NCBI GenBank assembly: GCA_051294905.1
Contig: CM119371.1
Span: forward strand, 18,664,001-18,728,000
Source: Botryllus schlosseri
Taxonomy: Eukaryota
Direction of reading: 5' to 3'
DNA: 64,000 bases
Part shown: positions 8,965 to 64,000 of the stretch, piece after piece
Layout of the letters: each line of letters begins with the position of its first letter
How positions within the stretch are numbered: position 1 is the stretch's first letter
Notes under the pieces: generated by a model
Told to the model about the DNA's origin: nothing
What the model saw: only the letters and a program-made list of their open reading frames with translations
Database searches by the model: none
Program-made: the position numbers and the translations under genes

Positions 8965-8994
8965 GTCTGAAGGCTTACATGAATATTCATACTG

Positions 8995-25952: not shown

Positions 25953-25964
25953 GTATAAATCCTG

Positions 25965-43460: not shown

Positions 43461-43615
43461 CGAACCTTGCCCCCACGCGCGGCGCGATCGATTTAACTAT
43501 CGTATTGCCACCCCTGGGTGGGTGATTTACTTGCTATGATTTTTTTAAGAACTTTGCCCCCACGCGCGGCGCGATCGATTTAACTATCATATCGCCACCC
43601 CTGCGTGGGTGATTA
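43461..43615. repeat. Two direct copies of a ~65-bp unit inside the LTR element
   Basis: TTGCCCCCACGCGCGGCGCGATCGATTTAACTATC...GCCACCCCTG.GTGGGTGATT occurs twice. Confidence 0.8.
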
Positions 43616-44801
43616 CCTCTTTATTGTTGTTTCTGCATAGGCTACTTTTTTGTAGGCTAGTAGTGTGTTGTAATAATATAAAATTCACTCGGTCCATCAA
43701 TCATTCATAACTGCATGTTTTTGCTTTTGTTGTTAGCTTTAAACCCACGCATTCGCTATCTTCCTTCAGGGCGGATACCGACAACGGTAATTCATTAATT
43801 TGACTCTTCCACGTCACCTAGTTCCGCTCCCTCTCAGAGGGGGGTCGGTGTAGCGAACCGCTGGTCCTTTTAACCCAATGTCCCTAGCTAACGCCAGGCA
43901 TCCGTTATGAAGGAAATATACTTTGCGTGTATTAGGATTTTAGTATATCATGACAACTTGTAGAACTCTACTATCTCTGCTAGTGTTGCGCAAGCGTTGT
44001 AAGCATTGTTACGCCAAACATAGTCCTAGCTAGAGTACTGCCTTTTTCCTGTCACTAGAACTTTACCAACCCGTTCTCATTGGCTAACGCATTACAATCG
44101 CATTCATTGTTACGCATTTTCGGGTATATAAACCCACGTTTCTCTGTGACGGCCCTTGAGATCTGAGATTCACCTCAGCGCCTAACGTATCTCTGCTGCA
44201 ATACATCCGTACCGAGTGAAACTGTGAGTTAAGAAGTCGCCAACCTAAAGACAGCCAGCCAGTCGCCAAGTCAGCTATCTACTGCTCCAGGCACGACACA
44301 GCCCCACCGTCACACTATACACCGAGAAATAACTAGGAATCGGAGATAAATTGCGCCCAGCGCAAATTTTTCTTCAGTTGACCCCAGCTTCGCGCCCCCG
44401 ACGCCTCCCTTCAGATGCTTTCAGGCCCCTAAGGGGATCGTCCTCCCGTTTGAGAACCACTGCTTTCAAGAATGAGTAATCTAACGAAAGAGAGACGGTG
44501 CGACAAAAGAGCTAAGTATCTAAGTTAATTTGTAAAATTACTGTGTCATTAGTAATTGCGTTTATAATGAAAGATGTCGCGGGCCGCAAAATAAACGTCT
44601 GCGGGCCGCGGGTTGAGAACCCCTGCCCTAGACACTAAATTATCAAACAAGTGCGGCCTGTTCTACAGGCTAAGACACTTCATGTCACCATGGGTCTGCC
44701 AGTAAAACTCGGTGAAATTGACATTGGAGAATATAATATAAAAGTAAAAAAACAGATTGTCTGATTGCGCTTGGGCATTTTCGGCCCGTCTGCCATCGGT
44801 T

Positions 44802-44897
44802 GAATATCATCATCCTGCTCTGCTCGAATATCATCATCCTGCTCTGCTCGAATATCATCATCCTGCCCTGCTCGAATATCATCATCCTGCTATGTTC
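44802..44897. repeat. 24-bp minisatellite x4
   Basis: (GAATATCATCATCCTGCTCTGCTC)4 with minor variants. Confidence 0.9.
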
Positions 44898-45074
44898 TTG
44901 TATCTGGTCGACAAACACACAAGTAAGCTCTCGCTGTCAGAGTAGTTATTTTATTGCACTTATCGTCATATGAAAACAGCACGAGATTTCGATGTAATGA
45001 CAATGTGTTACGCCTAGTATAACTACAAATTGAAATAAGCGGCGGCCAGCAAAATGATGACATTCATAGTTGTA

Positions 45075-46038
45075 GGGGAGATGTGGTACCGATGGATCAC
45101 TGGGACCGAAAATACTTTAAAAATTCTCCATGATAATTCTATGATTACACTCCGTGAATTTGTCTACAATTACATGCTGACAGAATCTTTCCTCACATGC
45201 AAAAAAATTCGACCTGCGTAAGTTATATGGTCTGGGACGAATGATTTACGTTTTAAGGGGGTGTAAAGTAAATTTAGATCGACATTTGCATTTTTCTATA
45301 TCACTTTTCAGACTAACAAACCCGCCATACTTTTTGGTGTGAAGTATAGGGCTTGTATCAAGGTATATAATGGCACATATTTTTTGAATCAATACCATCC
45401 TCGAGTGGACAATTTTCAAGTCAAAAACAATATTTATGGGGTAGGGGACCTATGGTACCATAGCCAAATCAAGCAAAATAGATGGACCAACTAATCACTT
45501 AATAACAGAAACTCGCCTAAATAGGCGGTAAATCATAGGTACCTGTGGTGTTTTGTCGCTATTTCGAGGTATTTGAAAGTCAAAATGTCGATTTGCGGGT
45601 AATATGTACGTGGCATCAATTTTGTAAGTTTAGGCGTAAATCAAAACATGATTTTAGGCCAACATTTGAGTGGATAATGAATATAATCTATTTTATGCTT
45701 GAAGGTCGCGATGAAACATTCTTCATTGCCTTTCTGTAGCTTAGCTTATAATACACAACAAAACAAGTTAACAAATGTGAGTTTTTGAGCGTACGTCGCA
45801 TAGGTCCCATGGTCGTGTGCCTTTGGACCCACTGGGTGGGTACCGATGACACGTTCGAGCAACAAGTTTTAAACGTTCATAAATATTTTTTGAGAAAGCG
45901 GATATTCATGTAAATGTCCGCGATAGGTAGAGCTTGTATCGACGTGTTGAAACAGCAAAAGATCCGCTATTATTGGCTGAAGATTTGAGGGCCAGAGATC
46001 ATTTTGCAATTTTTGAACCATCGGTACCACATCTCCCC
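45075..46038. mobile_element. TA-flanked MITE at the 5S array border
   Basis: Perfect 21-bp TIR GGGGAGATGTGGTACCGATGG/CCATCGGTACCACATCTCCCC with TA on both sides. Confidence 0.85.
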
Positions 46039-46276
46039 TACGTAGGCCTATACGTGCGCGTACAAAACAGTTGCAATCAAATTGATCGAGTTTGCGCGAC
46101 AAAAATGCAAAAGCCGCCTACCTACACCCGGTATTTGATCGCTGCGCTGTATTCACGTATGAAGCATCGCGCGAAATTTGTAATTGTAGTCGGCCTAACG
46201 CATTTTCATTATATCGCAATCGTCTTAAAGAAACGGACAATGTCACATAAAACGGCAGAAACTGACACGATCTGTC

Positions 46277-46397
46277 GCCTACGACCATACCACGTTGAAT
46301 ATACCCGATCTCGTCCGATCTCGGAAGTCAAGCAACGTTGGGCCCGGTTAGTACTTGCATGGGTGACCGGCTGGGAATACCGGGTGTAGTAGACGGC
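46277..46397 (+). rRNA. 5S rRNA, copy 1 (3' GTAGAC variant)
   Basis: GCCTACGACCATACCACGTTGAA...GATCTCGGAAGTCAAGC...TTAGTACTTG...GGGAATACCGGGTG, then T-run Pol III terminator. Confidence 0.95.
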
Positions 46398-46751
46398 TTT
46401 TTCATTTTTTTCGCACAAACTCGATCAATTTGATCGCTGCGCTGTATTCACGTATGAAGTATCGCGCGAAATTTGTAATTGTAGTCGGCCTAACACATTT
46501 TCATGATATCGAAATCTCGTGCTGTTTTTACATGACGAAAATTCCAATAAAATAACTACTCTGACAGCGAGAGCTTACTTGTCTGTTTTTCGACCAGACA
46601 CAAGAACAGAGCAGGACGCCAATGATATTCGACCTCTTGTTGGTCAGAAAGTGCCTCGGCGCAATAAGACTATCTATACTATTCTGGCGTCTCGTCGACA
46701 GCATGGCGACGGAAATTGTCACATAAAACGGCACAGATCGTAACCACTGTC

Positions 46752-46872
46752 GCCTACGACCATACCACGTTGAATATACCCGATCTCGTCCGATCTCGGA
46801 AGTCAAGCAACGTTGGGCCCGGTTAGTACTTGCATGGGTGACCGGCTGGGAATACCGGGTGTAGTAGGCGGC
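46752..46872 (+). rRNA. 5S rRNA, array consensus
   Basis: Full-length 5S plus terminator. Confidence 0.95.
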
Positions 46873-47226
46873 TTTTTCATTTTTTTCGCACAAACTCGAT
46901 CAATTTGATCGCTGCGCTGTATTCACGTATGAAGTATCGCGCGAAATTTGTAATTGTAGTCGGCCTAACACATTTTCATGATATCGAAATCTCGTGCTGT
47001 TTTTACATGACGAAAATTCCAATAAAATAACTACTCTGACAGCGAGAGCTTACTTGTCTGTTTTTCGAGCAGACACAAGAACAGAGCAGGACGCCAATGA
47101 TATTCGACCTCTAGTTGGTCAGAAAGTGCCTCGGCGCAATAAGACTATCTATACTATTCTGGCGTCTCGTCGACAGCATGGCGACGGAAATTGTCACATA
47201 AAACGGCACAGATCATAACCACTGTC

Positions 47227-47347
47227 GCCTACGACCATACCACGTTGAATATGCCCGATCTCGTCCGATCTCGGAAGTCAAGCAACGTTGGGCCCGGTTA
47301 GTACTTGCATGGGTGACCGGCTGGGAATACCGGGTGTAGTAGGCGGC
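47227..47347 (+). rRNA. 5S rRNA (ATGCCC variant)
   Basis: Full-length 5S, one substitution. Confidence 0.93.
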
Positions 47348-47521
47348 TTTTTCATTTTTTTCACACAAACTCGATCAATTTGATCGCTGCGCTGTATTCA
47401 CGTATGAAGTATCGCGCGAAATTTGTAATTGTAGTCGGCCTAACGCATTTTCATTATATCGCAATCGTCTTAGAGAAACGGACAATGTCACATAAAACGG
47501 CAGAAACTGTCTCGATCTGTC

Positions 47522-47642
47522 GCCTACGACCATACCACGTTGAATATACCCGATCTCGTCCGATCTCAGAAGTCAAGTAACGTTGGGCCCGGTTAGTACT
47601 TGCATGGGTGACCGGCTGGGAATACCGGGTGTAGTAGGCGGC
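47522..47642 (+). rRNA. 5S rRNA variant (CTCAGA, AAGTAA)
   Basis: Full-length 5S, two substitutions. Confidence 0.9.
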
Positions 47643-48102
47643 TTTTTCATTTTTTTCACACAAACTCGATCAATTTGATCGCTGCGCTGTATTCACGTAT
47701 GAAGTATCGCGCGAAATTTGTAATTGTAGTCGGCCTAACACATTTTCATGATATCGCAATCTCGTGCTGTTTTGACATGACGAAAATTCCAATAAAATAA
47801 CTACTCTGACAGCGAGAGCTTACTTGTCTGTTTTTCGACCAGACACAAGAACAGAGCAGGACGCCAATGATATTCGACCTCTAGTTGGTCAGAAAGTGCC
47901 TCGGCGCAATAAGACTATCTACTATTCTGGCGTCTCGTCGACAGCATGGCGACGGAAATTGTCACATAAAACGGCACAGATCGTAACCACTATCGCGCGA
48001 AATTTGTAATTGTAGTCGGCCTAACGCATTTTCATTATATCGCAATCGTCTTAGAAAAACGGACAATGTCACATAAAACGGCAGAAACTGTCACGATCTG
48101 TC

Positions 48103-48225
48103 GCCTACGACCATACCACGTTGAATATATACCCGATCTCGTCCGATCTCGGAAGTCAAGTAACGTTGGGCCCGGTTAGTACTTGCCTGGGTGACCGGCT
48201 GGGAATACCGGGTGTAGTAGGCGGC
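48103..48225 (+). rRNA. 5S rRNA variant with 2-nt insertion (possible pseudogene)
   Basis: GAATATATACCC, AAGTAA, GCCTGGG. Confidence 0.85.
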
Positions 48226-48280
48226 TTTTTCATTTTTTTCGCACAAACTCGATCAATTTGATCGCTGCGCTGTATTCACG

Positions 48281-48848
48281 GCGTCCTAAACATAGAAGAT
48301 ATGCGGAAACTAGAAATCGCCAAGTTTATGTATCAGTTTCACTGCGGTCGTTGCCCCGAATACTTCAATGACTTCTTTACCTCTGAATCAAAAGCGCACA
48401 AGTACAACACACGCGCGTCCATGTCGTCCAAATATCATATGATCGACCACGAAGATCATCGCTCCATCAAATATGCCGGACCTGATGTGTGGAACAGTAT
48501 CCCGCCGGCCATCCGACAGTCGACGAGCATGTCCACATTCAAGTCGAAATACAAGCAATTACTACTAAATAAATACAGTACATCCTCAAGATTACCGGAC
48601 CACGACTGACCTATCGATCTCGCTTCCCATGACATGCCGCCCTATTTCTTGTCGCATTCTTTTTCTATACTATCTTCTTTACTTTCATTCAGTGTGCATG
48701 CCTCCTCTTTACATCGCCTAGGCCAAGGTGGGTGTCAGATTCCATAGACTACTCCTTGTCGCTTCGACATCTTCCTGTCTTTTCATTGTATCGCATTTTT
48801 GCGGTGTATTGAACTGATAAAATTGCTAATAAACCAATGATGATGATG
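48281..48848 (+). mobile_element. 5'-truncated CR1/L2-group LINE 3' end in 5S spacer, copy 1
   Basis: ORF2 C-terminus (IAKFMY...HKYNTR...YAGPDVWNSIP...FKSKYK), 3' UTR, AATAAA, (ATG)n tail; interrupts spacer TATTCACG|TATGAAG. Confidence 0.9.
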
Positions 48849-48966
48849 ATGAAGTATCGCGCGAAATTTGTAATTGTAGTCGGCCTAACGCATTTTCATT
48901 ATATCGCAATCGTCTTAGAGAAACGGACAATGTCACATAAAACGGCAGAAACTGTCACGATCTGTC

Positions 48967-49087
48967 GCCTACGACCATACCACGTTGAATATACCCGATC
49001 TCGTCCGATCTCGGAAGTCAAGCAACGTTGGGCCCGGTTAGTACTTGCATGGGTGACCGGCTGGGAATACCGGGTGTAGTAGGCGGC
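48967..49087 (+). rRNA. 5S rRNA, array consensus
   Basis: Full-length 5S plus terminator. Confidence 0.95.
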
Positions 49088-49441
49088 TTTTTCATTTTTT
49101 TCGCACAAACTCGATCAATTTGATCGCTGCGCTGTATTCACGTATGAAGTATCGCGCGAAATTTGTAATTGTAGTCGGCCTAACACATTTTCATGATATC
49201 GAAATCTCGTGCTGTTTTTACATGACGAAAATTCCAATAAAATAACTACTCTGACAGCGAGAGCTTACTTGTCTGTTTTTCGAGCAGACACAAGAACAGA
49301 GCAGGACGCCAATGATATTCGACCTCTAGTTGGTCAGAAAGTGCCTCGGCGCAATAAGACTATCTATACTATTCTGGCGTCTCGTCGACAGCATGGCGAC
49401 GGAAATTGTCACATAAAACGGCACAGATCATAACCACTGTC

Positions 49442-49562
49442 GCCTACGACCATACCACGTTGAATATACCCGATCTCGTCCGATCTCGGAAGTCAAGCAA
49501 CGTTGGGCCCGGTTAGTACTTGTATGGGTGACCGGCTGGGAATACCGGGTGTAGTAGGCGGC
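49442..49562 (+). rRNA. 5S rRNA (TGTATGGG variant)
   Basis: Full-length 5S, one substitution. Confidence 0.93.
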
Positions 49563-49736
49563 TTTTTCATTTTTTTCACACAAACTCGATCAATTTGATC
49601 GCTGCGCTGTATTCACGTATGAAGTATCGCGCGAAATTTGTAATTGTAGTCGGCCTAACGCATTTTCATTATATCGCAATCGTCTTAGAGAAACGGACAA
49701 TGTCACATAAAACGGCAGAAACTGTCTCGATCTGTC

Positions 49737-49857
49737 GCCTACGACCATACCACGTTGAATATACCCGATCTCGTCCGATCTCAGAAGTCAAGTAACGTTG
49801 GGCCCGGTTAGTACTTGCATGGGTGACCGGCTGGGAATACCGGGTGTAGTAGGCGGC
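49737..49857 (+). rRNA. 5S rRNA variant (CTCAGA, AAGTAA)
   Basis: As 47522. Confidence 0.9.
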
Positions 49858-50317
49858 TTTTTCATTTTTTTCACACAAACTCGATCAATTTGATCGCTGC
49901 GCTGTATTCACGTATGAAGTATCGCGCGAAATTTGTAATTGTAGTCGGCCTAACACATTTTCATGATATCGCAATCTCGTGCTGTTTTGACATGACGAAA
50001 ATTCCAATAAAATAACTACTCTGACAGCGAGAGCTTACTTGTCTGTTTTTCGACCAGACACAAGAACAGAGCAGGACGCCAATGATATTCGACCTCTAGT
50101 TGGTCAGAAAGTGCCTCGGCGCAATAAGACTATCTACTATTCTGGCGTCTCGTCGACAGCATGGCGACGGAAATTGTCACATAAAACGGCACAGATCGTA
50201 ACCACTATCGCGCGAAATTTGTAATTGTAGTCGGCCTAACGCATTTTCATTATATCGCAATCGTCTTAGAGAAACGGACAATGTCACATAAAACGGCAGA
50301 AACTGTCACGATCTGTC

Positions 50318-50440
50318 GCCTACGACCATACCACGTTGAATATATACCCGATCTCGTCCGATCTCGGAAGTCAAGTAACGTTGGGCCCGGTTAGTACTTG
50401 CCTGGGTGACCGGCTGGGAATACCGGGTGTAGTAGGCGGC
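50318..50440 (+). rRNA. 5S rRNA variant with 2-nt insertion
   Basis: As 48103. Confidence 0.85.
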
Positions 50441-50495
50441 TTTTTCATTTTTTTCGCACAAACTCGATCAATTTGATCGCTGCGCTGTATTCACG

Positions 50496-51063
50496 GCGTC
50501 CTAAACATAGAAGATATGCGGAAACTAGAAATCGCCAAGTTTATGTATCAGTTTCACTGCGGTCGTTGCCCCGAATACTTCAATGACTTCTTTACCTCTG
50601 AATCAAAAGCGCACAAGTACAACACACGCGCGTCCATGTCGTCCAAATATCATATGATCGACCACGAAGATCATCGCTCCATCAAATATGCCGGACCTGA
50701 TGTGTGGAACAGTATCCCGCCGGCCATCCGACAGTCGACGAGCATGTCCACATTCAAGTCGAAATACAAGCAATTACTACTAAATAAATACAGTACATCC
50801 TCAAGATTACCGGACCACGACTGACCTATCGATCTCGCTTCCCATGACATGCCGCCCTATTTCTTGTCGCATTCTTTTTCTATACTATCTTCTTTACTTT
50901 CATTCAGTGTGCATGCCTCCTCTTTACATCGCCTAGGCCAAGGTGGGTGTCAGATTCCATAGACTACTCCTTGTCGCTTCGACATCTTCCTGTCTTTTCA
51001 TTGTATCGCATTTTTGCGGTGTATTGAACTGATAAAATTGCTAATAAACCAATGATGATGATG
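50496..51063 (+). mobile_element. LINE 3' fragment, copy 2
   Basis: Same junctions as 48281. Confidence 0.9.
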
Positions 51064-51181
51064 ATGAAGTATCGCGCGAAATTTGTAATTGTAGTCGGCC
51101 TAACGCATTTTCATTATATCGCAATCGTCTTAGAGAAACGGACAATGTCACATAAAACGGCAGAAACTGTCACGATCTGTC

Positions 51182-51302
51182 GCCTACGACCATACCACGT
51201 TGAATATACCCGATCTCGTCCGATCTCGGAAGTCAAGCAACGTTGGGCCCGGTTAGTACTTGCATGGGTGACCGGCTGGGAATACCGGGTGTAGTAGGCG
51301 GC
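51182..51302 (+). rRNA. 5S rRNA, consensus (HOR position a)
   Basis: Full-length 5S. Confidence 0.95.
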
Positions 51303-51656
51303 TTTTTCATTTTTTTCGCACAAACTCGATCAATTTGATCGCTGCGCTGTATTCACGTATGAAGTATCGCGCGAAATTTGTAATTGTAGTCGGCCTAACA
51401 CATTTTCATGATATCGAAATCTCGTGCTGTTTTTACATGACGAAAATTCCAATAAAATAACTACTCTGACAGCGAGAGCTTACTTGTCTGTTTTTCGAGC
51501 AGACACAAGAACAGAGCAGGACGCCAATGATATTCGACCTCTAGCTGGTCAGAAAGTGCCTCGGCGCAATAAGACTATCTATACTATTCTGGCGTCTCGT
51601 CGACAGCATGGCGACGTAAATTGTCACTAAAAACGGCACAGATCGTAACCACTGTC

Positions 51657-51777
51657 GCCTACGACCATACCACGTTGAATATACCCGATCTCGTCCGATC
51701 TCGGAAGTCAAGCAATGTTTGGCCCGGTTAGTACTTGCATGGGTGACCGGCTGGGAATACCGGGTGTAGTAGGCGGC
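51657..51777 (+). rRNA. 5S rRNA variant b (CAATGTTTGG)
   Basis: Two substitutions. Confidence 0.9.
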
Positions 51778-51951
51778 TTTTTCATTTTTTTCGCACAAAC
51801 TCGATCAATTTGATCGCTGCGCTGTATTCACGTATGAAGTATCGCGCGAAATTTGTAATTGTAGTCGGCCTAACGCATTTTCATTATATCGCAATCGTCT
51901 TAGAGAAACGGACAATGTCACATAAAACGGCAGAAACTGTCACGATCTGTC

Positions 51952-52072
51952 GCCTACGACCATACCACGTTGAATATACCCGATCTCGTCCGATCTCGGA
52001 AGTCAAGTAACGTTGGGCCCGGTTAGTAATTGCATGGGTGACCGGCTGGGAATACCGGGTGTAGTAGGCGGC
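51952..52072 (+). rRNA. 5S rRNA variant c (AAGTAA, AGTAATTG)
   Basis: Box A and loop E region substitutions. Confidence 0.9.
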
Positions 52073-52247
52073 TTTTTCATTTTTTTTCGCACAAACTCGA
52101 TCAATTTGATCGCTGCGCTGTATTCACGTATGAAGTATCGCGCGAAATTTGTAATTGTAGTCGGCCTAACGCATTTTCATTATATCGCAATCGTCTAAAA
52201 GAAACGGATAATGTCACATAAAACAGCAGAAACTGACACGATCTGTC

Positions 52248-52358
52248 GCCTACGACCATACCACGTTGAATATACCCGATCTCGGAAGTCAAGTAACGTT
52301 GGGCCCGGTTAGTACTTGCATGGGTGACCGGCTGGGAATACCGGGTGTAGTAGGCGGC
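52248..52358 (+). pseudogene. 5S rRNA pseudogene d (10-nt deletion)
   Basis: CCGATCTCG-T-CCGATCTCG collapsed to one copy. Confidence 0.85.
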
Positions 52359-52413
52359 TTTTTCATTTTTTTCGCACAAACTCGATCAATTTGATCGCTG
52401 CGCTGTATTCACG

Positions 52414-52981
52414 GCGTCCTAAACATAGAAGATATGCGGAAACTAGAAATCGCCAAGTTTATGTATCAGTTTCACTGCGGTCGTTGCCCCGAATACTTCA
52501 ATGACTTCTTTACCTCTGAATCAAAAGCGCACAAGTACAACACACGCGCGTCCATGTCGTCCAAATATCATATGATCGACCACGAAGATCATCGCTCCAT
52601 CAAATATGCCGGACCTGATGTGTGGAACAGTATCCCGCCGGCCATCCGACAGTCGACGAGCATGTCCACATTCAAGTCGAAATACAAGCAATTACTACTA
52701 AATAAATACAGTACATCCTCAAGATTACCGGACCACGACTGACCTATCGATCTCGCTTCCCATGACATGCCGCCCTATTTCTTGTCGCATTCTTTTTCTA
52801 TACTATCTTCTTTACTTTCATTCAGTGTGCATGCCTCCTCTTTACATCGCCTAGGCCAAGGTGGGTGTCAGATTCCATAGACTACTCCTTGTCGCTTCGA
52901 CATCTTCCTGTCTTTTCATTGTATCGCATTTTTGCGGTGTATTGAACTGATAAAATTGCTAATAAACCAATGATGATGATG
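52414..52981 (+). mobile_element. LINE 3' fragment, copy 3
   Basis: Same junctions as 48281. Confidence 0.9.
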
Positions 52982-53099
52982 ATGAAGTATCGCGCGAAAT
53001 TTGTAATTGTAGTCGGCCTAACGCATTTTCATTATATCGCAATCGTCTTAGAGAAACGGACAATGTCACATAAAACGGCAGAAACTGTCACGATCTGTC

Positions 53100-53220
53100 G
53101 CCTACGACCATACCACGTTGAATATACCCGATCTCGTCCGATCTCGGAAGTCAAGCAACGTTGGGCCCGGTTAGTACTTGCATGGGTGACCGGCTGGGAA
53201 TACCGGGTGTAGTAGGCGGC
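53100..53220 (+). rRNA. 5S rRNA, consensus (a)
   Basis: Full-length 5S. Confidence 0.95.
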
Positions 53221-53574
53221 TTTTTCATTTTTTTCGCACAAACTCGATCAATTTGATCGCTGCGCTGTATTCACGTATGAAGTATCGCGCGAAATTTGTA
53301 ATTGTAGTCGGCCTAACACATTTTCATGATATCGAAATCTCGTGCTGTCTTTACATGACGAAAATTCCAATAAAATAACTACTCTGACAGCGAGAGCTTA
53401 CTTGTCTGTTTTTCGAGCAGACACAAGAACAGAGCAGGACGCCAATGATATTCGACCTCTAGTTGGTCAGAAAGTGCCTCGGCGCAATAAGACTATCTAT
53501 ACTATTCTGGCGTCTCGTCGACAGCATGGCGACGTAAATTGTCACTAAAAACGGCACAGATCGTAACCACTGTC

Positions 53575-53695
53575 GCCTACGACCATACCACGTTGAATAT
53601 ACCCGATCTCGTCCGATCTCGGAAGTCAAGCAATGTTTGGCCCGGTTAGTACTTGCATGGGTGACCGGCTGGGAATACCGGGTGTAGTAGGCGGC
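53575..53695 (+). rRNA. 5S rRNA variant b
   Basis: As 51657. Confidence 0.9.
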
Positions 53696-53869
53696 TTTTT
53701 CATTTTTTTCGCACAAACTCGATCAATTTGATCGCTGCGCTGTATTCACGTATGAAGTATCGCGCGAAATTTGTAATTGTAGTCGGCCTAACGCATTTTC
53801 ATTATATCGCAATCGTCTTAGAGAAACGGACAATGTCACATAAAACGGCAGAAACTGTCACGATCTGTC

Positions 53870-53990
53870 GCCTACGACCATACCACGTTGAATATACCCG
53901 ATCTCGTCCGATCTCGGAAGTCAAGTAACGTTGGGCCCGGTTAGTAATTGCATGGGTGACCGGCTGGGAATACCGGGTGTAGTAGGCGGC
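53870..53990 (+). rRNA. 5S rRNA variant c
   Basis: As 51952. Confidence 0.9.
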
Positions 53991-54165
53991 TTTTTCATTT
54001 TTTTTCGCACAAACTCGATCAATTTGATCGCTGCGCTGTATTCACGTATGAAGTATCGCGCGAAATTTGTAATTGTAGTCGGCCTAACGCATTTTCATTA
54101 TATCGCAATCGTCTAAAAGAAACGGATAATGTCACATAAAACAGCAGAAACTGACACGATCTGTC

Positions 54166-54276
54166 GCCTACGACCATACCACGTTGAATATACCCGATCT
54201 CGGAAGTCAAGTAACGTTGGGCCCGGTTAGTACTTGCCTGGGTGACCGGCTGGGAATACCGGGTGTAGTAGGCGGC
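54166..54276 (+). pseudogene. 5S rRNA pseudogene d (also GCCTGGG)
   Basis: 10-nt deletion. Confidence 0.85.
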
Positions 54277-54331
54277 TTTTTCATTTTTTTCGCACAAACT
54301 CGATCAATTTGATCGCTGCGCTGTATTCACG

Positions 54332-54899
54332 GCGTCCTAAACATAGAAGATATGCGGAAACTAGAAATCGCCAAGTTTATGTATCAGTTTCACTGCGGTC
54401 GTTGCCCCGAATACTTCAATGACTTCTTTACCTCTGAATCAAAAGCGCACAAGTACAACACACGCGCGTCCATGTCGTCCAAATATCATATGATCGACCA
54501 CGAAGATCATCGCTCCATCAAATATGCCGGACCTGATGTGTGGAACAGTATCCCGCCGGCCATCCGACAGTCGACGAGCATGTCCACATTCAAGTCGAAA
54601 TACAAGCAATTACTACTAAATAAATACAGTACATCCTCAAGATTACCGGACCACGACTGACCTATCGATCTCGCTTCCCATGACATGCCGCCCTATTTCT
54701 TGTCGCATTCTTTTTCTATACTATCTTCTTTACTTTCATTCAGTGTGCATGCCTCCTCTTTACATCGCCTAGGCCAAGGTGGGTGTCAGATTCCATAGAC
54801 TACTCCTTGTCGCTTCGACATCTTCCTGTCTTTTCATTGTATCGCATTTTTGCGGTGTATTGAACTGATAAAATTGCTAATAAACCAATGATGATGATG
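54332..54899 (+). mobile_element. LINE 3' fragment, copy 4
   Basis: Same junctions. Confidence 0.9.
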
Positions 54900-55017
54900 A
54901 TGAAGTATCGCGCGAAATTTGTAATTGTAGTCGGCCTAACGCATTTTCATTATATCGCAATCGTCTTAGAGAAACGGACAATGTCACATAAAACGGCAGA
55001 AACTGTCACGATCTGTC

Positions 55018-55138
55018 GCCTACGACCATACCACGTTGAATATACCCGATCTCGTCCGATCTCGGAAGTCAAGCAACGTTGGGCCCGGTTAGTACTTGCA
55101 TGGGTGACCGGCTGGGAATACCGGGTGTAGTAGGCGGC
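55018..55138 (+). rRNA. 5S rRNA, consensus (a)
   Basis: Full-length 5S. Confidence 0.95.
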
Positions 55139-55492
55139 TTTTTCATTTTTTTCGCACAAACTCGATCAATTTGATCGCTGCGCTGTATTCACGTATGAAG
55201 TATCGCGCGAAATTTGTAATTGTAGTCGGCCTAACACATTTTCATGATATCGAAATCTCGTGCTGTTTTTACATGACGAAAATTCCAATAAAATAACTAC
55301 TCTGACAGCGAGAGCTTACTTGTCTGTTTTTCGAGCAGACACAAGAACAGAGCAGGACGCCAATGATATTCGACCTCTAGTTGGTCAGAAAGTGCCTCGG
55401 CGCAATAAGACTATCTATACTATTCTGGCGTCTCGTCGACAGCATGGCGACGTAAATTGTCACTAAAAACGGCACAGATCGTAACCACTGTC

Positions 55493-55613
55493 GCCTACGA
55501 CCATACCACGTTGAATATACCCGATCTCGTCCGATCTCGGAAGTCAAGCAATGTTTGGCCCGGTTAGTACTTGCATGGGTGACCGGCTGGGAATACCGGG
55601 TGTAGTAGGCGGC
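55493..55613 (+). rRNA. 5S rRNA variant b
   Basis: As 51657. Confidence 0.9.
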
Positions 55614-55787
55614 TTTTTCATTTTTTTCGCACAAACTCGATCAATTTGATCGCTGCGCTGTATTCACGTATGAAGTATCGCGCGAAATTTGTAATTGTAG
55701 TCGGCCTAACGCATTTTCATTATATCGCAATCGTCTTAGAGAAACGGACAATGTCACATAAAACGGCAGAAACTGTCACGATCTGTC

Positions 55788-55908
55788 GCCTACGACCATA
55801 CCACGTTGAATATACCCGATCTCGTCCGATCTCGGAAGTCAAGTAACGTTGGGCCCGGTTAGTAATTGCATGGGTGACCGGCTGGGAATACCGGGTGTAG
55901 TAGGCGGC
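55788..55908 (+). rRNA. 5S rRNA variant c
   Basis: As 51952. Confidence 0.9.
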
Positions 55909-56083
55909 TTTTTCATTTTTTTTCGCACAAACTCGATCAATTTGATCGCTGCGCTGTATTCACGTATGAAGTATCGCGCGAAATTTGTAATTGTAGTCGG
56001 CCTAACGCATTTTCATTATATCGCAATCGTCTAAAAGAAACGGATAATGTCACATAAAACAGCAGAAACTGACACGATCTGTC

Positions 56084-56194
56084 GCCTACGACCATACCAC
56101 GTTGAATATACCCGATCTCGGAAGTCAAGTAACGTTGGGCCCGGTTAGTACTTGCATGGGTGACCGGCTGGGAATACCGGGTGTAGTAGGCGGC
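56084..56194 (+). pseudogene. 5S rRNA pseudogene d
   Basis: 10-nt deletion. Confidence 0.85.
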
Positions 56195-56249
56195 TTTTTC
56201 ATTTTTTTCGCACAAACTCGATCAATTTGATCGCTGCGCTGTATTCACG

Positions 56250-56817
56250 GCGTCCTAAACATAGAAGATATGCGGAAACTAGAAATCGCCAAGTTTATGT
56301 ATCAGTTTCACTGCGGTCGTTGCCCCGAATACTTCAATGACTTCTTTACCTCTGAATCAAAAGCGCACAAGTACAACACACGCGCGTCCATGTCGTCCAA
56401 ATATCATATGATCGACCACGAAGATCATCGCTCCATCAAATATGCCGGACCTGATGTGTGGAACAGTATCCCGCCGGCCATCCGACAGTCGACGAGCATG
56501 TCCACATTCAAGTCGAAATACAAGCAATTACTACTAAATAAATACAGTACATCCTCAAGATTACCGGACCACGACTGACCTATCGATCTCGCTTCCCATG
56601 ACATGCCGCCCTATTTCTTGTCGCATTCTTTTTCTATACTATCTTCTTTACTTTCATTCAGTGTGCATGCCTCCTCTTTACATCGCCTAGGCCAAGGTGG
56701 GTGTCAGATTCCATAGACTACTCCTTGTCGCTTCGACATCTTCCTGTCTTTTCATTGTATCGCATTTTTGCGGTGTATTGAACTGATAAAATTGCTAATA
56801 AACCAATGATGATGATG
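56250..56817 (+). mobile_element. LINE 3' fragment, copy 5
   Basis: Same junctions. Confidence 0.9.
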
Positions 56818-56935
56818 ATGAAGTATCGCGCGAAATTTGTAATTGTAGTCGGCCTAACGCATTTTCATTATATCGCAATCGTCTTAGAGAAACGGACAAT
56901 GTCACATAAAACGGCAGAAACTGTCACGATCTGTC

Positions 56936-57056
56936 GCCTACGACCATACCACGTTGAATATACCCGATCTCGTCCGATCTCGGAAGTCAAGCAACGTTGG
57001 GCCCGGTTAGTACTTGCATGGGTGACCGGCTGGGAATACCGGGTGTAGTAGGCGGC
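56936..57056 (+). rRNA. 5S rRNA, consensus (a)
   Basis: Full-length 5S. Confidence 0.95.
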
Positions 57057-57410
57057 TTTTTCATTTTTTTCGCACAAACTCGATCAATTTGATCGCTGCG
57101 CTGTATTCACGTATGAAGTATCGCGCGAAATTTGTAATTGTAGTCGGCCTAACACATTTTCATGATATCGAAATCTCGTGCTGTCTTTACATGACGAAAA
57201 TTCCAATAAAATAACTACTCTGACAGCGAGAGCTTACTTGTCTGTTTTTCGAGCAGACACAAGAACAGAGCAGGACGCCAATGATATTCGACCTCTAGTT
57301 GGTCAGAAAGTGCCTCGGCGCAATAAGACTATCTATACTATTCTGGCGTCTCGTCGACAGCATGGCGACGTAAATTGTCACTAAAAACGGCACAGATCGT
57401 AACCACTGTC

Positions 57411-57531
57411 GCCTACGACCATACCACGTTGAATATACCCGATCTCGTCCGATCTCGGAAGTCAAGCAATGTTTGGCCCGGTTAGTACTTGCATGGGTGA
57501 CCGGCTGGGAATACCGGGTGTAGTAGGCGGC
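57411..57531 (+). rRNA. 5S rRNA variant b
   Basis: As 51657. Confidence 0.9.
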
Positions 57532-57705
57532 TTTTTCATTTTTTTCGCACAAACTCGATCAATTTGATCGCTGCGCTGTATTCACGTATGAAGTATCGCG
57601 CGAAATTTGTAATTGTAGTCGGCCTAACGCATTTTCATTATATCGCAATCGTCTTAGAGAAACGGACAATGTCACATAAAACGGCAGAAACTGTCACGAT
57701 CTGTC

Positions 57706-57826
57706 GCCTACGACCATACCACGTTGAATATACCCGATCTCGTCCGATCTCGGAAGTCAAGTAACGTTGGGCCCGGTTAGTAATTGCATGGGTGACCGGC
57801 TGGGAATACCGGGTGTAGTAGGCGGC
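57706..57826 (+). rRNA. 5S rRNA variant c
   Basis: As 51952. Confidence 0.9.
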
Positions 57827-58001
57827 TTTTTCATTTTTTTTCGCACAAACTCGATCAATTTGATCGCTGCGCTGTATTCACGTATGAAGTATCGCGCGAA
57901 ATTTGTAATTGTAGTCGGCCTAACGCATTTTCATTATATCGCAATCGTCTAAAAGAAACGGATAATGTCACATAAAACAGCAGAAACTGACACGATCTGT
58001 C

Positions 58002-58112
58002 GCCTACGACCATACCACGTTGAATATACCCGATCTCGGAAGTCAAGTAACGTTGGGCCCGGTTAGTACTTGCATGGGTGACCGGCTGGGAATACCGGGT
58101 GTAGTAGGCGGC
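58002..58112 (+). pseudogene. 5S rRNA pseudogene d
   Basis: 10-nt deletion. Confidence 0.85.
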
Positions 58113-58167
58113 TTTTTCATTTTTTTCGCACAAACTCGATCAATTTGATCGCTGCGCTGTATTCACG

Positions 58168-58735
58168 GCGTCCTAAACATAGAAGATATGCGGAAACTAG
58201 AAATCGCCAAGTTTATGTATCAGTTTCACTGCGGTCGTTGCCCCGAATACTTCAATGACTTCTTTACCTCTGAATCAAAAGCGCACAAGTACAACACACG
58301 CGCGTCCATGTCGTCCAAATATCATATGATCGACCACGAAGATCATCGCTCCATCAAATATGCCGGACCTGATGTGTGGAACAGTATCCCGCCGGCCATC
58401 CGACAGTCGACGAGCATGTCCACATTCAAGTCGAAATACAAGCAATTACTACTAAATAAATACAGTACATCCTCAAGATTACCGGACCACGACTGACCTA
58501 TCGATCTCGCTTCCCATGACATGCCGCCCTATTTCTTGTCGCATTCTTTTTCTATACTATCTTCTTTACTTTCATTCAGTGTGCATGCCTCCTCTTTACA
58601 TCGCCTAGGCCAAGGTGGGTGTCAGATTCCATAGACTACTCCTTGTCGCTTCGACATCTTCCTGTCTTTTCATTGTATCGCATTTTTGCGGTGTATTGAA
58701 CTGATAAAATTGCTAATAAACCAATGATGATGATG
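58168..58735 (+). mobile_element. LINE 3' fragment, copy 6
   Basis: Same junctions. Confidence 0.9.
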
Positions 58736-58853
58736 ATGAAGTATCGCGCGAAATTTGTAATTGTAGTCGGCCTAACGCATTTTCATTATATCGCAATCGT
58801 CTTAGAGAAACGGACAATGTCACATAAAACGGCAGAAACTGTCACGATCTGTC

Positions 58854-58974
58854 GCCTACGACCATACCACGTTGAATATACCCGATCTCGTCCGATCTCG
58901 GAAGTCAAGCAACGTTGGGCCCGGTTAGTACTTGCATGGGTGACCGGCTGGGAATACCGGGTGTAGTAGGCGGC
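58854..58974 (+). rRNA. 5S rRNA, consensus (a)
   Basis: Full-length 5S. Confidence 0.95.
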
Positions 58975-59328
58975 TTTTTCATTTTTTTCGCACAAACTCG
59001 ATCAATTTGATCGCTGCGCTGTATTCACGTATGAAGTATCGCGCGAAATTTGTAATTGTAGTCGGCCTAACACATTTTCATGATATCGAAATCTCGTGCT
59101 GTCTTTACATGACGAAAATTCCAATAAAATAACTACTCTGACAGCGAGAGCTTACTTGTCTGTTTTTCGAGCAGACACAAGAACAGAGCAGGACGCCAAT
59201 GATATTCGACCTCTAGTTGGTCAGAAAGTGCCTCGGCGCAATAAGACTATCTATACTATTCTGGCGTCTCGTCGACAGCATGGCGACGTAAATTGTCACT
59301 AAAAACGGCACAGATCGTAACCACTGTC

Positions 59329-59449
59329 GCCTACGACCATACCACGTTGAATATACCCGATCTCGTCCGATCTCGGAAGTCAAGCAATGTTTGGCCCGGT
59401 TAGTACTTGCATGGGTGACCGGCTGGGAATACCGGGTGTAGTAGGCGGC
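59329..59449 (+). rRNA. 5S rRNA variant b
   Basis: As 51657. Confidence 0.9.
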
Positions 59450-59623
59450 TTTTTCATTTTTTTCGCACAAACTCGATCAATTTGATCGCTGCGCTGTATT
59501 CACGTATGAAGTATCGCGCGAAATTTGTAATTGTAGTCGGCCTAACGCATTTTCATTATATCGCAATCGTCTTAGAGAAACGGACAATGTCACATAAAAC
59601 GGCAGAAACTGTCACGATCTGTC

Positions 59624-59744
59624 GCCTACGACCATACCACGTTGAATATACCCGATCTCGTCCGATCTCGGAAGTCAAGTAACGTTGGGCCCGGTTAGTA
59701 ATTGCATGGGTGACCGGCTGGGAATACCGGGTGTAGTAGGCGGC
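59624..59744 (+). rRNA. 5S rRNA variant c
   Basis: As 51952. Confidence 0.9.
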
Positions 59745-59919
59745 TTTTTCATTTTTTTTCGCACAAACTCGATCAATTTGATCGCTGCGCTGTATTCACG
59801 TATGAAGTATCGCGCGAAATTTGTAATTGTAGTCGGCCTAACGCATTTTCATTATATCGCAATCGTCTAAAAGAAACGGATAATGTCACATAAAACAGCA
59901 GAAACTGACACGATCTGTC

Positions 59920-60030
59920 GCCTACGACCATACCACGTTGAATATACCCGATCTCGGAAGTCAAGTAACGTTGGGCCCGGTTAGTACTTGCATGGGTGAC
60001 CGGCTGGGAATACCGGGTGTAGTAGGCGGC
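59920..60030 (+). pseudogene. 5S rRNA pseudogene d
   Basis: 10-nt deletion. Confidence 0.85.
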
Positions 60031-60085
60031 TTTTTCATTTTTTTCGCACAAACTCGATCAATTTGATCGCTGCGCTGTATTCACG

Positions 60086-60653
60086 GCGTCCTAAACATAG
60101 AAGATATGCGGAAACTAGAAATCGCCAAGTTTATGTATCAGTTTCACTGCGGTCGTTGCCCCGAATACTTCAATGACTTCTTTACCTCTGAATCAAAAGC
60201 GCACAAGTACAACACACGCGCGTCCATGTCGTCCAAATATCATATGATCGACCACGAAGATCATCGCTCCATCAAATATGCCGGACCTGATGTGTGGAAC
60301 AGTATCCCGCCGGCCATCCGACAGTCGACGAGCATGTCCACATTCAAGTCGAAATACAAGCAATTACTACTAAATAAATACAGTACATCCTCAAGATTAC
60401 CGGACCACGACTGACCTATCGATCTCGCTTCCCATGACATGCCGCCCTATTTCTTGTCGCATTCTTTTTCTATACTATCTTCTTTACTTTCATTCAGTGT
60501 GCATGCCTCCTCTTTACATCGCCTAGGCCAAGGTGGGTGTCAGATTCCATAGACTACTCCTTGTCGCTTCGACATCTTCCTGTCTTTTCATTGTATCGCA
60601 TTTTTGCGGTGTATTGAACTGATAAAATTGCTAATAAACCAATGATGATGATG
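60086..60653 (+). mobile_element. LINE 3' fragment, copy 7
   Basis: Same junctions. Confidence 0.9.
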
Positions 60654-60771
60654 ATGAAGTATCGCGCGAAATTTGTAATTGTAGTCGGCCTAACGCATTT
60701 TCATTATATCGCAATCGTCTTAGAGAAACGGACAATGTCACATAAAACGGCAGAAACTGTCACGATCTGTC

Positions 60772-60892
60772 GCCTACGACCATACCACGTTGAATATACC
60801 CGATCTCGTCCGATCTCGGAAGTCAAGCAACGTTGGGCCCGGTTAGTACTTGCATGGGTGACCGGCTGGGAATACCGGGTGTAGTAGGCGGC
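60772..60892 (+). rRNA. 5S rRNA, consensus (a)
   Basis: Full-length 5S. Confidence 0.95.
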
Positions 60893-61246
60893 TTTTTCAT
60901 TTTTTTCGCACAAACTCGATCAATTTGATCGCTGCGCTGTATTCACGTATGAAGTATCGCGCGAAATTTGTAATTGTAGTCGGCCTAACACATTTTCATG
61001 ATATCGAAATCTCGTGCTGTCTTTACATGACGAAAATTCCAATAAAATAACTACTCTGACAGCGAGAGCTTACTTGTCTGTTTTTCGAGCAGACACAAGA
61101 ACAGAGCAGGACGCCAATGATATTCGACCTCTAGTTGGTCAGAAAGTGCCTCGGCGCAATAAGACTATCTATACTATTCTGGCGTCTCGTCGACAGCATG
61201 GCGACGTAAATTGTCACTAAAAACGGCACAGATCGTAACCACTGTC

Positions 61247-61367
61247 GCCTACGACCATACCACGTTGAATATACCCGATCTCGTCCGATCTCGGAAGTCA
61301 AGCAATGTTTGGCCCGGTTAGTACTTGCATGGGTGACCGGCTGGGAATACCGGGTGTAGTAGGCGGC
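61247..61367 (+). rRNA. 5S rRNA variant b
   Basis: As 51657. Confidence 0.9.
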
Positions 61368-61541
61368 TTTTTCATTTTTTTCGCACAAACTCGATCAATT
61401 TGATCGCTGCGCTGTATTCACGTATGAAGTATCGCGCGAAATTTGTAATTGTAGTCGGCCTAACGCATTTTCATTATATCGCAATCGTCTTAGAGAAACG
61501 GACAATGTCACATAAAACGGCAGAAACTGTCACGATCTGTC

Positions 61542-61662
61542 GCCTACGACCATACCACGTTGAATATACCCGATCTCGTCCGATCTCGGAAGTCAAGTAA
61601 CGTTGGGCCCGGTTAGTAATTGCATGGGTGACCGGCTGGGAATACCGGGTGTAGTAGGCGGC
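61542..61662 (+). rRNA. 5S rRNA variant c
   Basis: As 51952. Confidence 0.9.
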
Positions 61663-61837
61663 TTTTTCATTTTTTTTCGCACAAACTCGATCAATTTGAT
61701 CGCTGCGCTGTATTCACGTATGAAGTATCGCGCGAAATTTGTAATTGTAGTCGGCCTAACGCATTTTCATTATATCGCAATCGTCTAAAAGAAACGGATA
61801 ATGTCACATAAAACAGCAGAAACTGACACGATCTGTC

Positions 61838-61948
61838 GCCTACGACCATACCACGTTGAATATACCCGATCTCGGAAGTCAAGTAACGTTGGGCCCGGTT
61901 AGTACTTGCATGGGTGACCGGCTGGGAATACCGGGTGTAGTAGGCGGC
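61838..61948 (+). pseudogene. 5S rRNA pseudogene d
   Basis: 10-nt deletion. Confidence 0.85.
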
Positions 61949-62003
61949 TTTTTCATTTTTTTCGCACAAACTCGATCAATTTGATCGCTGCGCTGTATTC
62001 ACG

Positions 62004-62571
62004 GCGTCCTAAACATTGAAGATATGCGGAAACTAGAAATCGCCAAGTTTATGTATCAGTTTCACTGCGGTCGTTGCCCCGAATACTTCAATGACTTCTT
62101 TACCTCTGAATCAAAAGCGCACAAGTACAACACACGCGCGTCCATGTCGTCCAAATATCATATGATCGACCGCGAAGATCATCGCTCCATCAAATATGCC
62201 GGACCTGATGTGTGGAACAGTATCCCGCCGGCCATCCGACAGTCGACGAGCATGTCCACATTCAAGTCGAACAACAAGCAATTACTACTAAATAAATACA
62301 GTACATCCTCAAGATTACCGGACCACGACTGACCTATCGATCTCGCTTCCCATGACATGCCGCCCTATTTCTTGTCGCATTCTTTTTCTATACTATCTTC
62401 TTTACTTTCATTCAGTGTGCATGCCTCCTCTTTACATCGCCTAGGCCAAGGTGGGTGTCAGATTCCATAGACTACTCCTTGTCGCTTCGACATCTTCCTG
62501 TCTTTTCATTGTATCGCATTTTTGTGGTGTATTGAACTGATAAAATTGCTAATAAACCAATGATGATGATG
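62004..62571 (+). mobile_element. LINE 3' fragment, copy 8 (private substitutions)
   Basis: Same junctions; H>R and KY>NN changes in the ORF. Confidence 0.9.
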
Positions 62572-62689
62572 ATGAAGTATCGCGCGAAATTTGTAATTGT
62601 AGTCGGCCTAACGCATTTTCATTATATCGCAATCGTCTTAGAGAAACGGACAATGTCACATAAAACGGCAGAAACTGTCTCGATCTGTC

Positions 62690-62810
62690 GCCTACGACCA
62701 TACCACGTTGAATATACCCGATCTCGTCCGATCTCGGAAGTCAAGTAACGTTGGGCCCGGTTAGTACTTGCATGGGTGACCGGCAGGGAATACCGGGTGT
62801 AGTAGGCGGC
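62690..62810 (+). rRNA. 5S rRNA variant (AAGTAA, GGCAGGG)
   Basis: Full-length, two substitutions. Confidence 0.9.
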
Positions 62811-63164
62811 TTTTTCATTTTTTTCGCACAAACTCGATCAATTTGATCGCTGCGCTGTATTCACGTATGAAGTATCGCGCGAAATTTGTAATTGTAGTCG
62901 GCCTAACACATTTTCATGATATCGAAATCTTGTGCTGTTTTTACATGACGAAAATTCCAATAAAATAACTACTCTGACAGCGAGAGCTTACTTGTCTGTT
63001 TTTCGAGCAGACACAAGAACAGAGCAGGACGCCAATGATATTCGACCTCTAGTTGGTCAGAAAGTGCCTCGGCGCAATAAGACTATCTATACTATTCTGG
63101 CGTCTCGTCGACAGCATGGCGACGTAAATTGTCACTAAAAACGGCACAGATCGTAACCACTGTC

Positions 63165-63285
63165 GCCTACGACCATACCACGTTGAATATACCCGATCTC
63201 GTCCGATCTCGGAAGTCAAGCAATGTTTGGCCCGGTTAGTACTTGCATGGGTGACCGGCTGGGAATACCGGGTGTAGTAGGCGGC
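63165..63285 (+). rRNA. 5S rRNA variant b
   Basis: As 51657. Confidence 0.9.
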
Positions 63286-63639
63286 TTTTTCATTTTTTTC
63301 GCACAAACTCGATCAATTTGATCGCTGCGCTGTATTCACGTATGAAGTATCGCGCGAAATTTGTAATTGTAGTCGGCCTAACACATTTTCATGATATCGA
63401 AATCTCGTGCTGTTTTTACATGACGAAAATTCCAATAAAATAACTACTCTGACAGCGAGAGCTTACTTGTCTGTTTTTCGAGCAGACACAAGAACAGAGC
63501 AGGACGCCAATGATATTCGACCTCTAGTTGGTCAGAAAGTGCCTCGGCGCAATAAGACTATCTATACTATTCTGGCGTCTCGTCGACAGCATGGCGACGT
63601 AAATTGTCACTAAAAACGGCACAGATCGTAACCACTGTC

Positions 63640-63760
63640 GCCTACGACCATACCACGTTGAATATACCCGATCTCGTCCGATCTCGGAAGTCAAGCAATG
63701 TTTGGCCCGGTTAGTACTTGCATGGGTGACCGGCAGGGAATACCGGGTGTAGTAGGCGGC
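63640..63760 (+). rRNA. 5S rRNA variant b plus GGCAGGG
   Basis: Full-length, three substitutions. Confidence 0.9.
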
Positions 63761-64000
63761 TTTTTCATTTTTTTCGCACAAACTCGATCAATTTGATCGC
63801 TGCGCTGTATTCACGTATGAAGTATCGCGCGAAATTTGTAATTGTAGTCGGCCTAACACATTTTCATGATATCGAAATCTCGTGCTGTTTTTACATGACG
63901 AAAATTCCAATAAAATAACTACTCTGACAGCGAGAGCTTACTTGTCTGTTTTTCGAGCAGACACAAGAACAGAGCAGGACGCCAATGATATTCGACCTCT

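Follow-up and report, generated by a model that had tools for sequence, protein, structure and literature searches.

A LINE 3' fragment in the 5S rDNA spacer of Botryllus schlosseri, probably inserted once and multiplied within higher-order repeats of the array

The right-hand part of a 64,000-nt stretch of the Botryllus schlosseri genome (GenBank assembly GCA_051294905.1, contig CM119371.1, positions 18,664,001 to 18,728,000; hereafter the window, with coordinates counted from its first base) is occupied by a tandem array of 5S rRNA genes, and some of the spacers contain a 3' fragment of a long interspersed nuclear element (LINE). Among 5S arrays, our analysis covers the one in this window. 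An Rfam search of the window finds 36 5S genes, all on the plus strand, from 46277 to 63758. The building blocks are 475-bp units with a long spacer and 295- or 296-bp units with a short spacer, and they are combined into two types of higher-order repeat:

46133..64000, plus strand: 5S rDNA tandem array of 36 genes, running off the window's right end
46752..51181, plus strand: higher-order repeat type A, 2 x 2215 bp (475+295+581+864), the copies differing at 3 sites
51182..62689, plus strand: higher-order repeat type B, 6 x 1918 bp (475+295+296+852), with 5 distinct sequences among the 6 copies
47522..48102, plus strand: 581-bp unit of type A, the product of a ~187-bp deletion that joined a long to a short unit

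Gene-to-gene periods run 475, 475, 295, 581, 864, 475, 295, 581 and 864 bp, then six times through 475, 295, 296 and 852 bp, and end with 475 and 475 bp. The periods of 2215 bp and then 1918 bp that the initial annotation had read from this DNA are borne out, the longer unit occurring twice and the shorter one six times. Each higher-order unit comprises four 5S genes and one LINE insert, and seven of the eight copies are distinct sequences. Insert-free units flank the block on both sides; the last three array units at the window's right end are without a LINE, the third being cut by the window end past its empty site. The deletion in the 581-bp unit took out one entire 5S gene, with a junction near 47991 at which there is imperfect microhomology. 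Types A and B have only about 1.2 kb in common, around the insert. The duplicated flanks of the LINE copies share spacer variants, and to the left of successive copies there are identical runs of 93-4818 bp. T250C is found in four of the six type-B copies, while A83C, the type-A allele, is present in one type-B gene, a trace of exchange between the unit types.

The spacer site in question occurs 37 times in the window, 29 times empty and 8 times filled. The inserts, and the parts of the first one, are as follows:

48226..48239, plus strand: T5 and T7 runs resembling RNA polymerase III (Pol III) terminators, between the 5S gene and the LINE
48279..48280, plus strand: 5' microhomology CG between spacer and LINE (loose contig ends before 48279 in runs X1 and X5; residues F-G-V of the related protein P0002)
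48281..48848, plus strand: LINE 3' fragment, copy 1 (48279-48852 with both microhomologies)
48283..48609, plus strand: end of LINE open reading frame 2 (ORF2), last 108 codons and stop; 104 of 108 residues as in P0002 residues 882-989
48610..48852, plus strand: LINE 3' untranslated region (UTR), with AATAAA at 48828 and an ATG/TGA repeat tail at 48837-48852
50496..51063, plus strand: LINE copy 2, same sequence as copy 1
52414..52981, plus strand: LINE copy 3, same sequence as copy 1
54332..54899, plus strand: LINE copy 4, same sequence as copy 1
56250..56817, plus strand: LINE copy 5, same sequence as copy 1
58168..58735, plus strand: LINE copy 6, same sequence as copy 1
60086..60653, plus strand: LINE copy 7, same sequence as copy 1
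62004..62571, plus strand: LINE copy 8, a second haplotype with 5 substitutions (2 dispersed-family letters, 3 private)

Copy 1 starts 58 bp past the end of a 5S gene and lies on the same strand as that gene; its 3' UTR holds three further runs of 4-5 T. The empty sites (29 of 37) read ...TATTCACG-T-ATGAAG, and each filled site has a 568-bp insert that ends with (ATG)4 ahead of ATGAAG, as first described. Start and end base are the same in all eight copies, which bears out the shared 5' truncation and tail length, and seven of the eight are identical throughout. The claim that the insert lacks a target-site duplication (TSD) stands. The loss of strictly 1 bp of target does not: the loss is 1 to 7 bp, because the CG with which the target ends at the 5' junction is also LINE sequence. 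A hidden TSD is excluded, as the middle T is missing on both sides and the microhomology can only lengthen the target loss. At the other end, the last 4 bases of the tail, ATGA, are common to LINE and target, a 4-bp 3' microhomology that confirms the reported match of tail and target. The possibility that the tail was made from the target was rejected, since the same ATG/TGA repeat occurs in other copies of the family. The 3' ATGA match is more telling than the 5' CG match, because it has a chance of about 1.5% per site, compared with about 7% of junctions for a match of 2 bp. In cultured cells, according to excerpts of PMC4245944 and PMC2666801, inserts of the L2-clade element ZfL2 can be joined at the 5' end by annealing and can lack a short piece of target. 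The window shows no CpG depletion that might point to silencing: the ratio of observed to expected CpG is 1.49 for the array, 1.22 for the insert and 0.95 outside.

The frame that the initial annotation took for a 102-aa C-terminus is open over 108 codons to its stop; 102 is the count from the first Met. The 108-aa piece has no match to any Pfam family up to E 1. A profile-free search of cluster representatives yields 2488 proteins at E up to 0.001, and in most of the best 150 of these 2488 the match lies at or near the C-terminus. Among 21 candidate longer proteins, two match the piece at 96% identity over its full length. One of them, P0002, is a full ORF2 of 989 aa whose C-terminal 108 residues correspond to the frame of the insert, with four amino-acid changes over the 108 codons. 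P0002 contains an apurinic/apyrimidinic endonuclease (APE) domain (PF03372, E 4e-7) as well as one for reverse transcriptase (RT; PF00078, E 4e-35), with catalytic-type motifs present; these are its only two Pfam families past the cut-off, and it has no RNase H or zinc-knuckle Pfam match up to E 1 and no CCHC pattern. Among the 120 listed relatives of its RT half, the best identity is 43% and none belongs to an RNase H or zinc-knuckle family; eight of the 120 have a PHD domain (PF00628; two of four confirmed on rescan), which P0002 itself lacks. To our knowledge, LINEs of the CR1/L2 group have neither an RNase H nor a C-terminal zinc knuckle. They end in a short tandem-repeat 3' tail rather than poly(A). 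The tail of the insert is an ATG/TGA repeat, and other copies of the family run on with it past 48852. By its sequence the insert is the 3' end of an APE-endonuclease/RT LINE. The earlier assignment to the CR1/L2 group is probable from domain architecture and tail type, as distinct from a tree against named references, with CR1, L2, Daphne, Crack and Kiri as candidate clades. For CR1 and L2 subgroups, ORF2 or the sole ORF has been described as beginning with a PHD (PMC4120745, in part). With 43% as the highest identity of P0002 to any listed relative, the family itself may be undescribed.

The wider family was followed in public sequencing runs, of which 4 of 24 were used: X1 (possibly the source sample), X5 and X6 (other samples) and X23 (single-cell RNA, 3% read). 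The 743-bp spacer-insert-spacer stretch that served as query is matched by 80365 contigs in X1, 12621 in X5 and 4882 in X6, and by 8717 reads in X23, with depth greatest over the LINE part. Loose ends before 48279 follow a single consensus (agreement 0.74-0.76) that extends ORF2 as in P0002. Those behind the tail continue with more TGA units and then disagree (agreement 0.39-0.45; X1, X6 and X23). The LINE family is abundant and dispersed. By these loose ends it includes full-length copies, its tail is part of the element, and its neighbours vary by copy. A further piece of this family, or of a close one, lies outside the array at 39025-39522. It is an internal RT fragment with a frameshift, has 89% identity to P0002 over 76 residues, and is truncated on the 3' side by a different repeat, which is also found near 44625 and at 24488-25954. 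In the RNA of X23 the dispersed family is well represented over 48600-48850, mostly by its 3' end and on both strands. Given this RNA and the existence of an intact ORF2 (P0002), the dispersed family may be active.

Against this background the array copies can be told from the family. At the best-supported sites, the array copy differs from the dispersed-family letter at least seven times, and at these seven diagnostic sites the family letter makes up 92.5-100% of depth in X1, X5 and X6. At five of them (48363, 48422, 48450, 48451 and 48580) all eight copies have the same non-family letter. At the other two, copy 8 carries the family letter and copies 1-7 do not. Copies 1-7 are identical despite sitting in two different higher-order units. 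The simplest tree for these sequences would have one founder and a later split into copies 1-7 and copy 8. Amplification proceeded in several steps and not in one burst, because the two LINE haplotypes occupy at least two different higher-order units.

We favour, with a probability of about 0.87, one 5'-truncated retrotransposition of a dispersed, non-site-specific LINE that was then multiplied by recombination of the array. The single insertion with amplification by unequal exchange proposed in the initial annotation is supported by the identical ends, the private alleles, the co-duplicated flanks and the mixed 3' flanks of the family. Several points weigh against it. The two family letters of copy 8 could stem from gene conversion with a dispersed copy, or from CpG decay at 48802; no listed contig spans the stretch, and the copy number of 8 rests on the assembly; summed contig depths are not copy numbers; and a 5' microhomology as short as 2 bp is expected by chance in about 7% of junctions.

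From the anatomy of the insert and the published model of target-primed reverse transcription, the last ~570 bp of an APE-type LINE would have entered a 5S spacer immediately downstream of Pol III terminators, its ATG-repeat tail pairing with ATGA at the nick and reverse transcription stopping early. The cDNA end would have been joined by annealing at the 2-bp CG microhomology, with 1-7 target bases lost. The copy is dead, and the sequence shows that it drifted and divided into two haplotypes. Through unequal exchange and gene conversion, the LINE-bearing block of ~1.2 kb would have come to lie beside different neighbours and been multiplied as the 2215-bp and 1918-bp four-gene units that are observed as products. 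On this reading the insert itself is without function, a passenger whose presence marks the turnover of the array.

The initial annotation also held the insert to be a fixed part of the repeat unit. This is so within the filled block and not beyond it: only 8 of the 36 units in the window array are filled, and empty joints are found in X1, X5 and X6. At least half of the sampled words of the spacer-insert-spacer stretch are present in 18 of the 24 listed runs (X19-X22, with a word share of 0.14 or 0, were left out). A genome with the dispersed family and empty spacers, and without the filled allele, would be expected to hold 0.71 of the 31-mers. The 14 rows from other samples have shares of 0.56-0.75, which fits absence of the filled allele; the four rows of the possible source sample have 0.99, 0.86, 0.81 and 0.75. 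Non-family letters at 48422, 48450 and 48451 account for 1.1-6.9% in X1 and 0.07-0.17% in X5; at 48580 and 48802 the contrast is weak, or reversed in one run. The filled unit is probably a polymorphic allele, and these figures suggest a private or low-frequency one, with the reservations that contigs drop rare variants and that one run of the source sample is as low as the others.

The 5S genes directly upstream of the LINE differ from the rest of the array:

48103..48223, plus strand: type-A 5S gene before the LINE, its loop B enlarged by an insertion of 2 bp, AT (also 50318-50438)
52248..52356, plus strand: type-B 5S gene before the LINE, its loop C removed by a deletion of 10 bp between direct repeats (further copies start at 54166, 56084, 58002, 59920 and 61838)

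Their Rfam scores are 91.8 bits for type A and 80-82 bits for type B, compared with 103.8 for the commonest gene, and the type-B gene is a probable pseudogene by its sequence. Indels occur in 8/8 genes directly upstream of the LINE and in 0/28 others. This pattern reflects only two independent lesions (+2 bp and -10 bp), for which the chance is about 1 in 16 on the assumption of one indel gene in each four-gene unit. A separate 5S variant, C60T with G64T (51657-51775 and like copies), breaks one helix II pair and is carried by each of the six type-B units and by two right-end monomers; because it has been amplified, the commonest 5S sequence is that of only 8 of the 36 genes.

Could the LINE have hit this spacer base repeatedly, as Mutsu, a LINE of the Tx1/L1 clade, does in 5S genes? 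The tail matches the target over 4 bases, and of the unit's 475 plus-strand positions only 7 match it so well, as recurrent site-specific targeting would have it. However, eight identical truncation points and five common private alleles (in the window, the one place inspected) are hard to obtain by repeated insertion. The 3' flanks of the family are heterogeneous, the insert lies in the spacer with all 36 5S genes uninterrupted, and the ORF2 has no Pfam zinc-knuckle match and has relatives with a PHD, unlike L1/Tx1; we consider targeting highly improbable. An expansion by the assembler of one or two true filled units is also very unlikely. Two of the six 1918-bp copies are identical, the four others differ at 1-2 sites or only at the end, and none of the contigs listed crosses the stretch, all of which would suit an artefact. 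Yet seven of the eight higher-order copies are distinct, their variants are patterned (T250C in 4/6, A83C across types), there are two LINE haplotypes and two unit types, and X1, though possibly the source, holds 0.99 of the words, junction words included.

Two further readings give the LINE piece a larger part than the single insertion multiplied by recombination allows. A 5S gene with a LINE tail could be a SINE3-like unit (a short interspersed element), transcribed and retrotransposed as one piece: order and strand fit a 5S-derived head and a LINE-derived 3' tail (as outlined in part of PMC5786205), and the lesions of the upstream gene lie 5' of its internal promoter region. Between the 5S end and the tail, however, there are five runs of 4-7 T, which speak against such a transcript, and the copies sit inside head-to-tail array units, have co-duplicated flanks and lack a TSD. 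In the X23 RNA, the dispersed-family letter stands at 48450 in 108 of 109 reads (weak evidence, from another sample that may lack the filled allele; its RNA is not counted as a sign of silence), and no 5S-spacer-LINE chimera occurs in the window outside the array; we regard this origin as scarcely credible. The other reading makes the LINE piece active, silencing or freeing the upstream 5S gene and setting the register for higher-order exchange. It draws on the indels in 8/8 LINE-upstream genes compared with 0/28 others, through two different lesions, on higher-order periods that coincide with the LINE-bearing block and give way to monomers after it, and on Tribolium freemani, whose 5S pseudogenes are found, by excerpts of PMC11202950, only in LINE-containing arrays. 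Just two independent events underlie the indels (about 1 in 16 by chance), and an amplified block carries any contents, which makes the coincidence with the period partly circular; we think an active role unlikely. A combined version is also doubtful, with somewhat less to recommend it: the dead tail inactivates the upstream gene, which decayed twice independently, and, being the unit's longest unique stretch, sets the exchange register, and the cassette is a DNA-level precursor of SINE3. If that were true, the cassette (a LINE 3' tail behind a 5S gene that is damaged but keeps an intact internal promoter region) would be short of a SINE3 only by terminator loss.

The array begins head-to-head with the 3' end of an older, inverted 5S gene and its long spacer:

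44903..46135, minus strand: older, inverted copy of a 5S 3' end with long-type spacer (88-90% alike), interrupted by an inverted-repeat element of 964 bp

This older copy at the array start shows that the long spacer of the 475-bp unit came first and that the 295-bp type is derived from it by deletion. The element that splits it (45075-46038) is non-coding and resembles a miniature inverted-repeat transposable element (MITE): its terminal inverted repeats are 25 bp long, and TA is duplicated. Its position is roughly homologous to that of the LINE, and one X5 contig carries an apparent empty TA site. The LINE site, the end of the ~187-bp deletion, the left array edge and this element all fall within about 37 bp of the spacer; we do not claim a breakpoint hot spot, as the chance of four of 7 or 8 points lying so close is 0.05-0.09 and the interval was picked post hoc. 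A 24-bp minisatellite at 44802-44891 grew from the older inverted spacer. Farther left, direct repeats of 132 bp (40775-40906 and 43849-43980, 99% alike) enclose a 231-aa gag-like frame with a weak DUF7041 match (E 0.07), and 40775-43980 is, from its sequence, probably a young, internally deleted long terminal repeat element. Two C2H2 zinc-finger ORFs on opposite strands (8983-10191, plus, and 26184-27509, minus; 402 and 441 aa between stops) are about 65% alike in DNA.

Spread of a single transposable element (TE) insertion by unequal recombination is one of two scenarios for rDNA given in the parts of Garcia et al. 2024 (PMC10946416) consulted here, in which the 5S spacer is described as a relatively frequent place of TE insertion, with Allium, cereals, banana and fish listed. 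The B. schlosseri array is a new instance of this known process; homogenised TE insertions in rDNA have already been published. Many units with identical inserts are common to the scenario in that review and to our array, which differs in its partial spread (8/36), its four-gene higher-order units and its base-level resolution with two haplotypes. In the second 5S family of Allium schoenoprasum and in Diplodus sargus, with a LINE in the spacer, the TE likewise defines a longer class beside an empty one; those unit classes come from cloning or fluorescence in situ hybridization, and the same excerpts of PMC10946416 state no higher-order arrangement. Closest among insects are the 5S-satellite-Jockey arrays of Tribolium freemani (Volaric et al. 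2024, PMC11202950), in which, as here, LINEs regularly interrupt the 5S array. According to portions of that paper, array LINEs are more uniform than dispersed copies, pseudogenes are confined to LINE-containing arrays, and the elements, some 5 kb long, are for the most part associated with 5S, whereas ours is a dead 0.57-kb fragment of a mainly dispersed family, with no satellite. Mutsu, the zebrafish 5S-specific LINE, is like our element APE-type and found in 5S arrays, but as described in sections of PMC10946416 and PMC11202950 it is about 5.5 kb and targets the gene repeatedly, where here a dispersed family entered the spacer once. ZfL2-1 and ZfL2-2 of the CR1/L2 group share with the present LINE an ORF2 with APE and RT, a 5' truncation joined via microhomology and the possibility of a short target loss (PMC4245944, PMC2666801 and PMC4120745, each in part).

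We found no report of a LINE-marked 5S higher-order repeat in a tunicate, or of this locus, in a literature search that covered subscription journals thinly and is weak to that extent. Only fish are listed for 5S-spacer insertions in animals in the portions of PMC10946416 consulted, and the present array adds an animal case that is neither fish nor insect. Repeated targeting and the spread of one insertion are usually hard to separate, and here private alleles decide for one insertion. The link between LINE and damaged 5S genes would give the case greater weight if it proved causal. As a unique marker within the 5S array, the insert, typed in several animals, could report the speed at which variants are spread or removed by unequal exchange.

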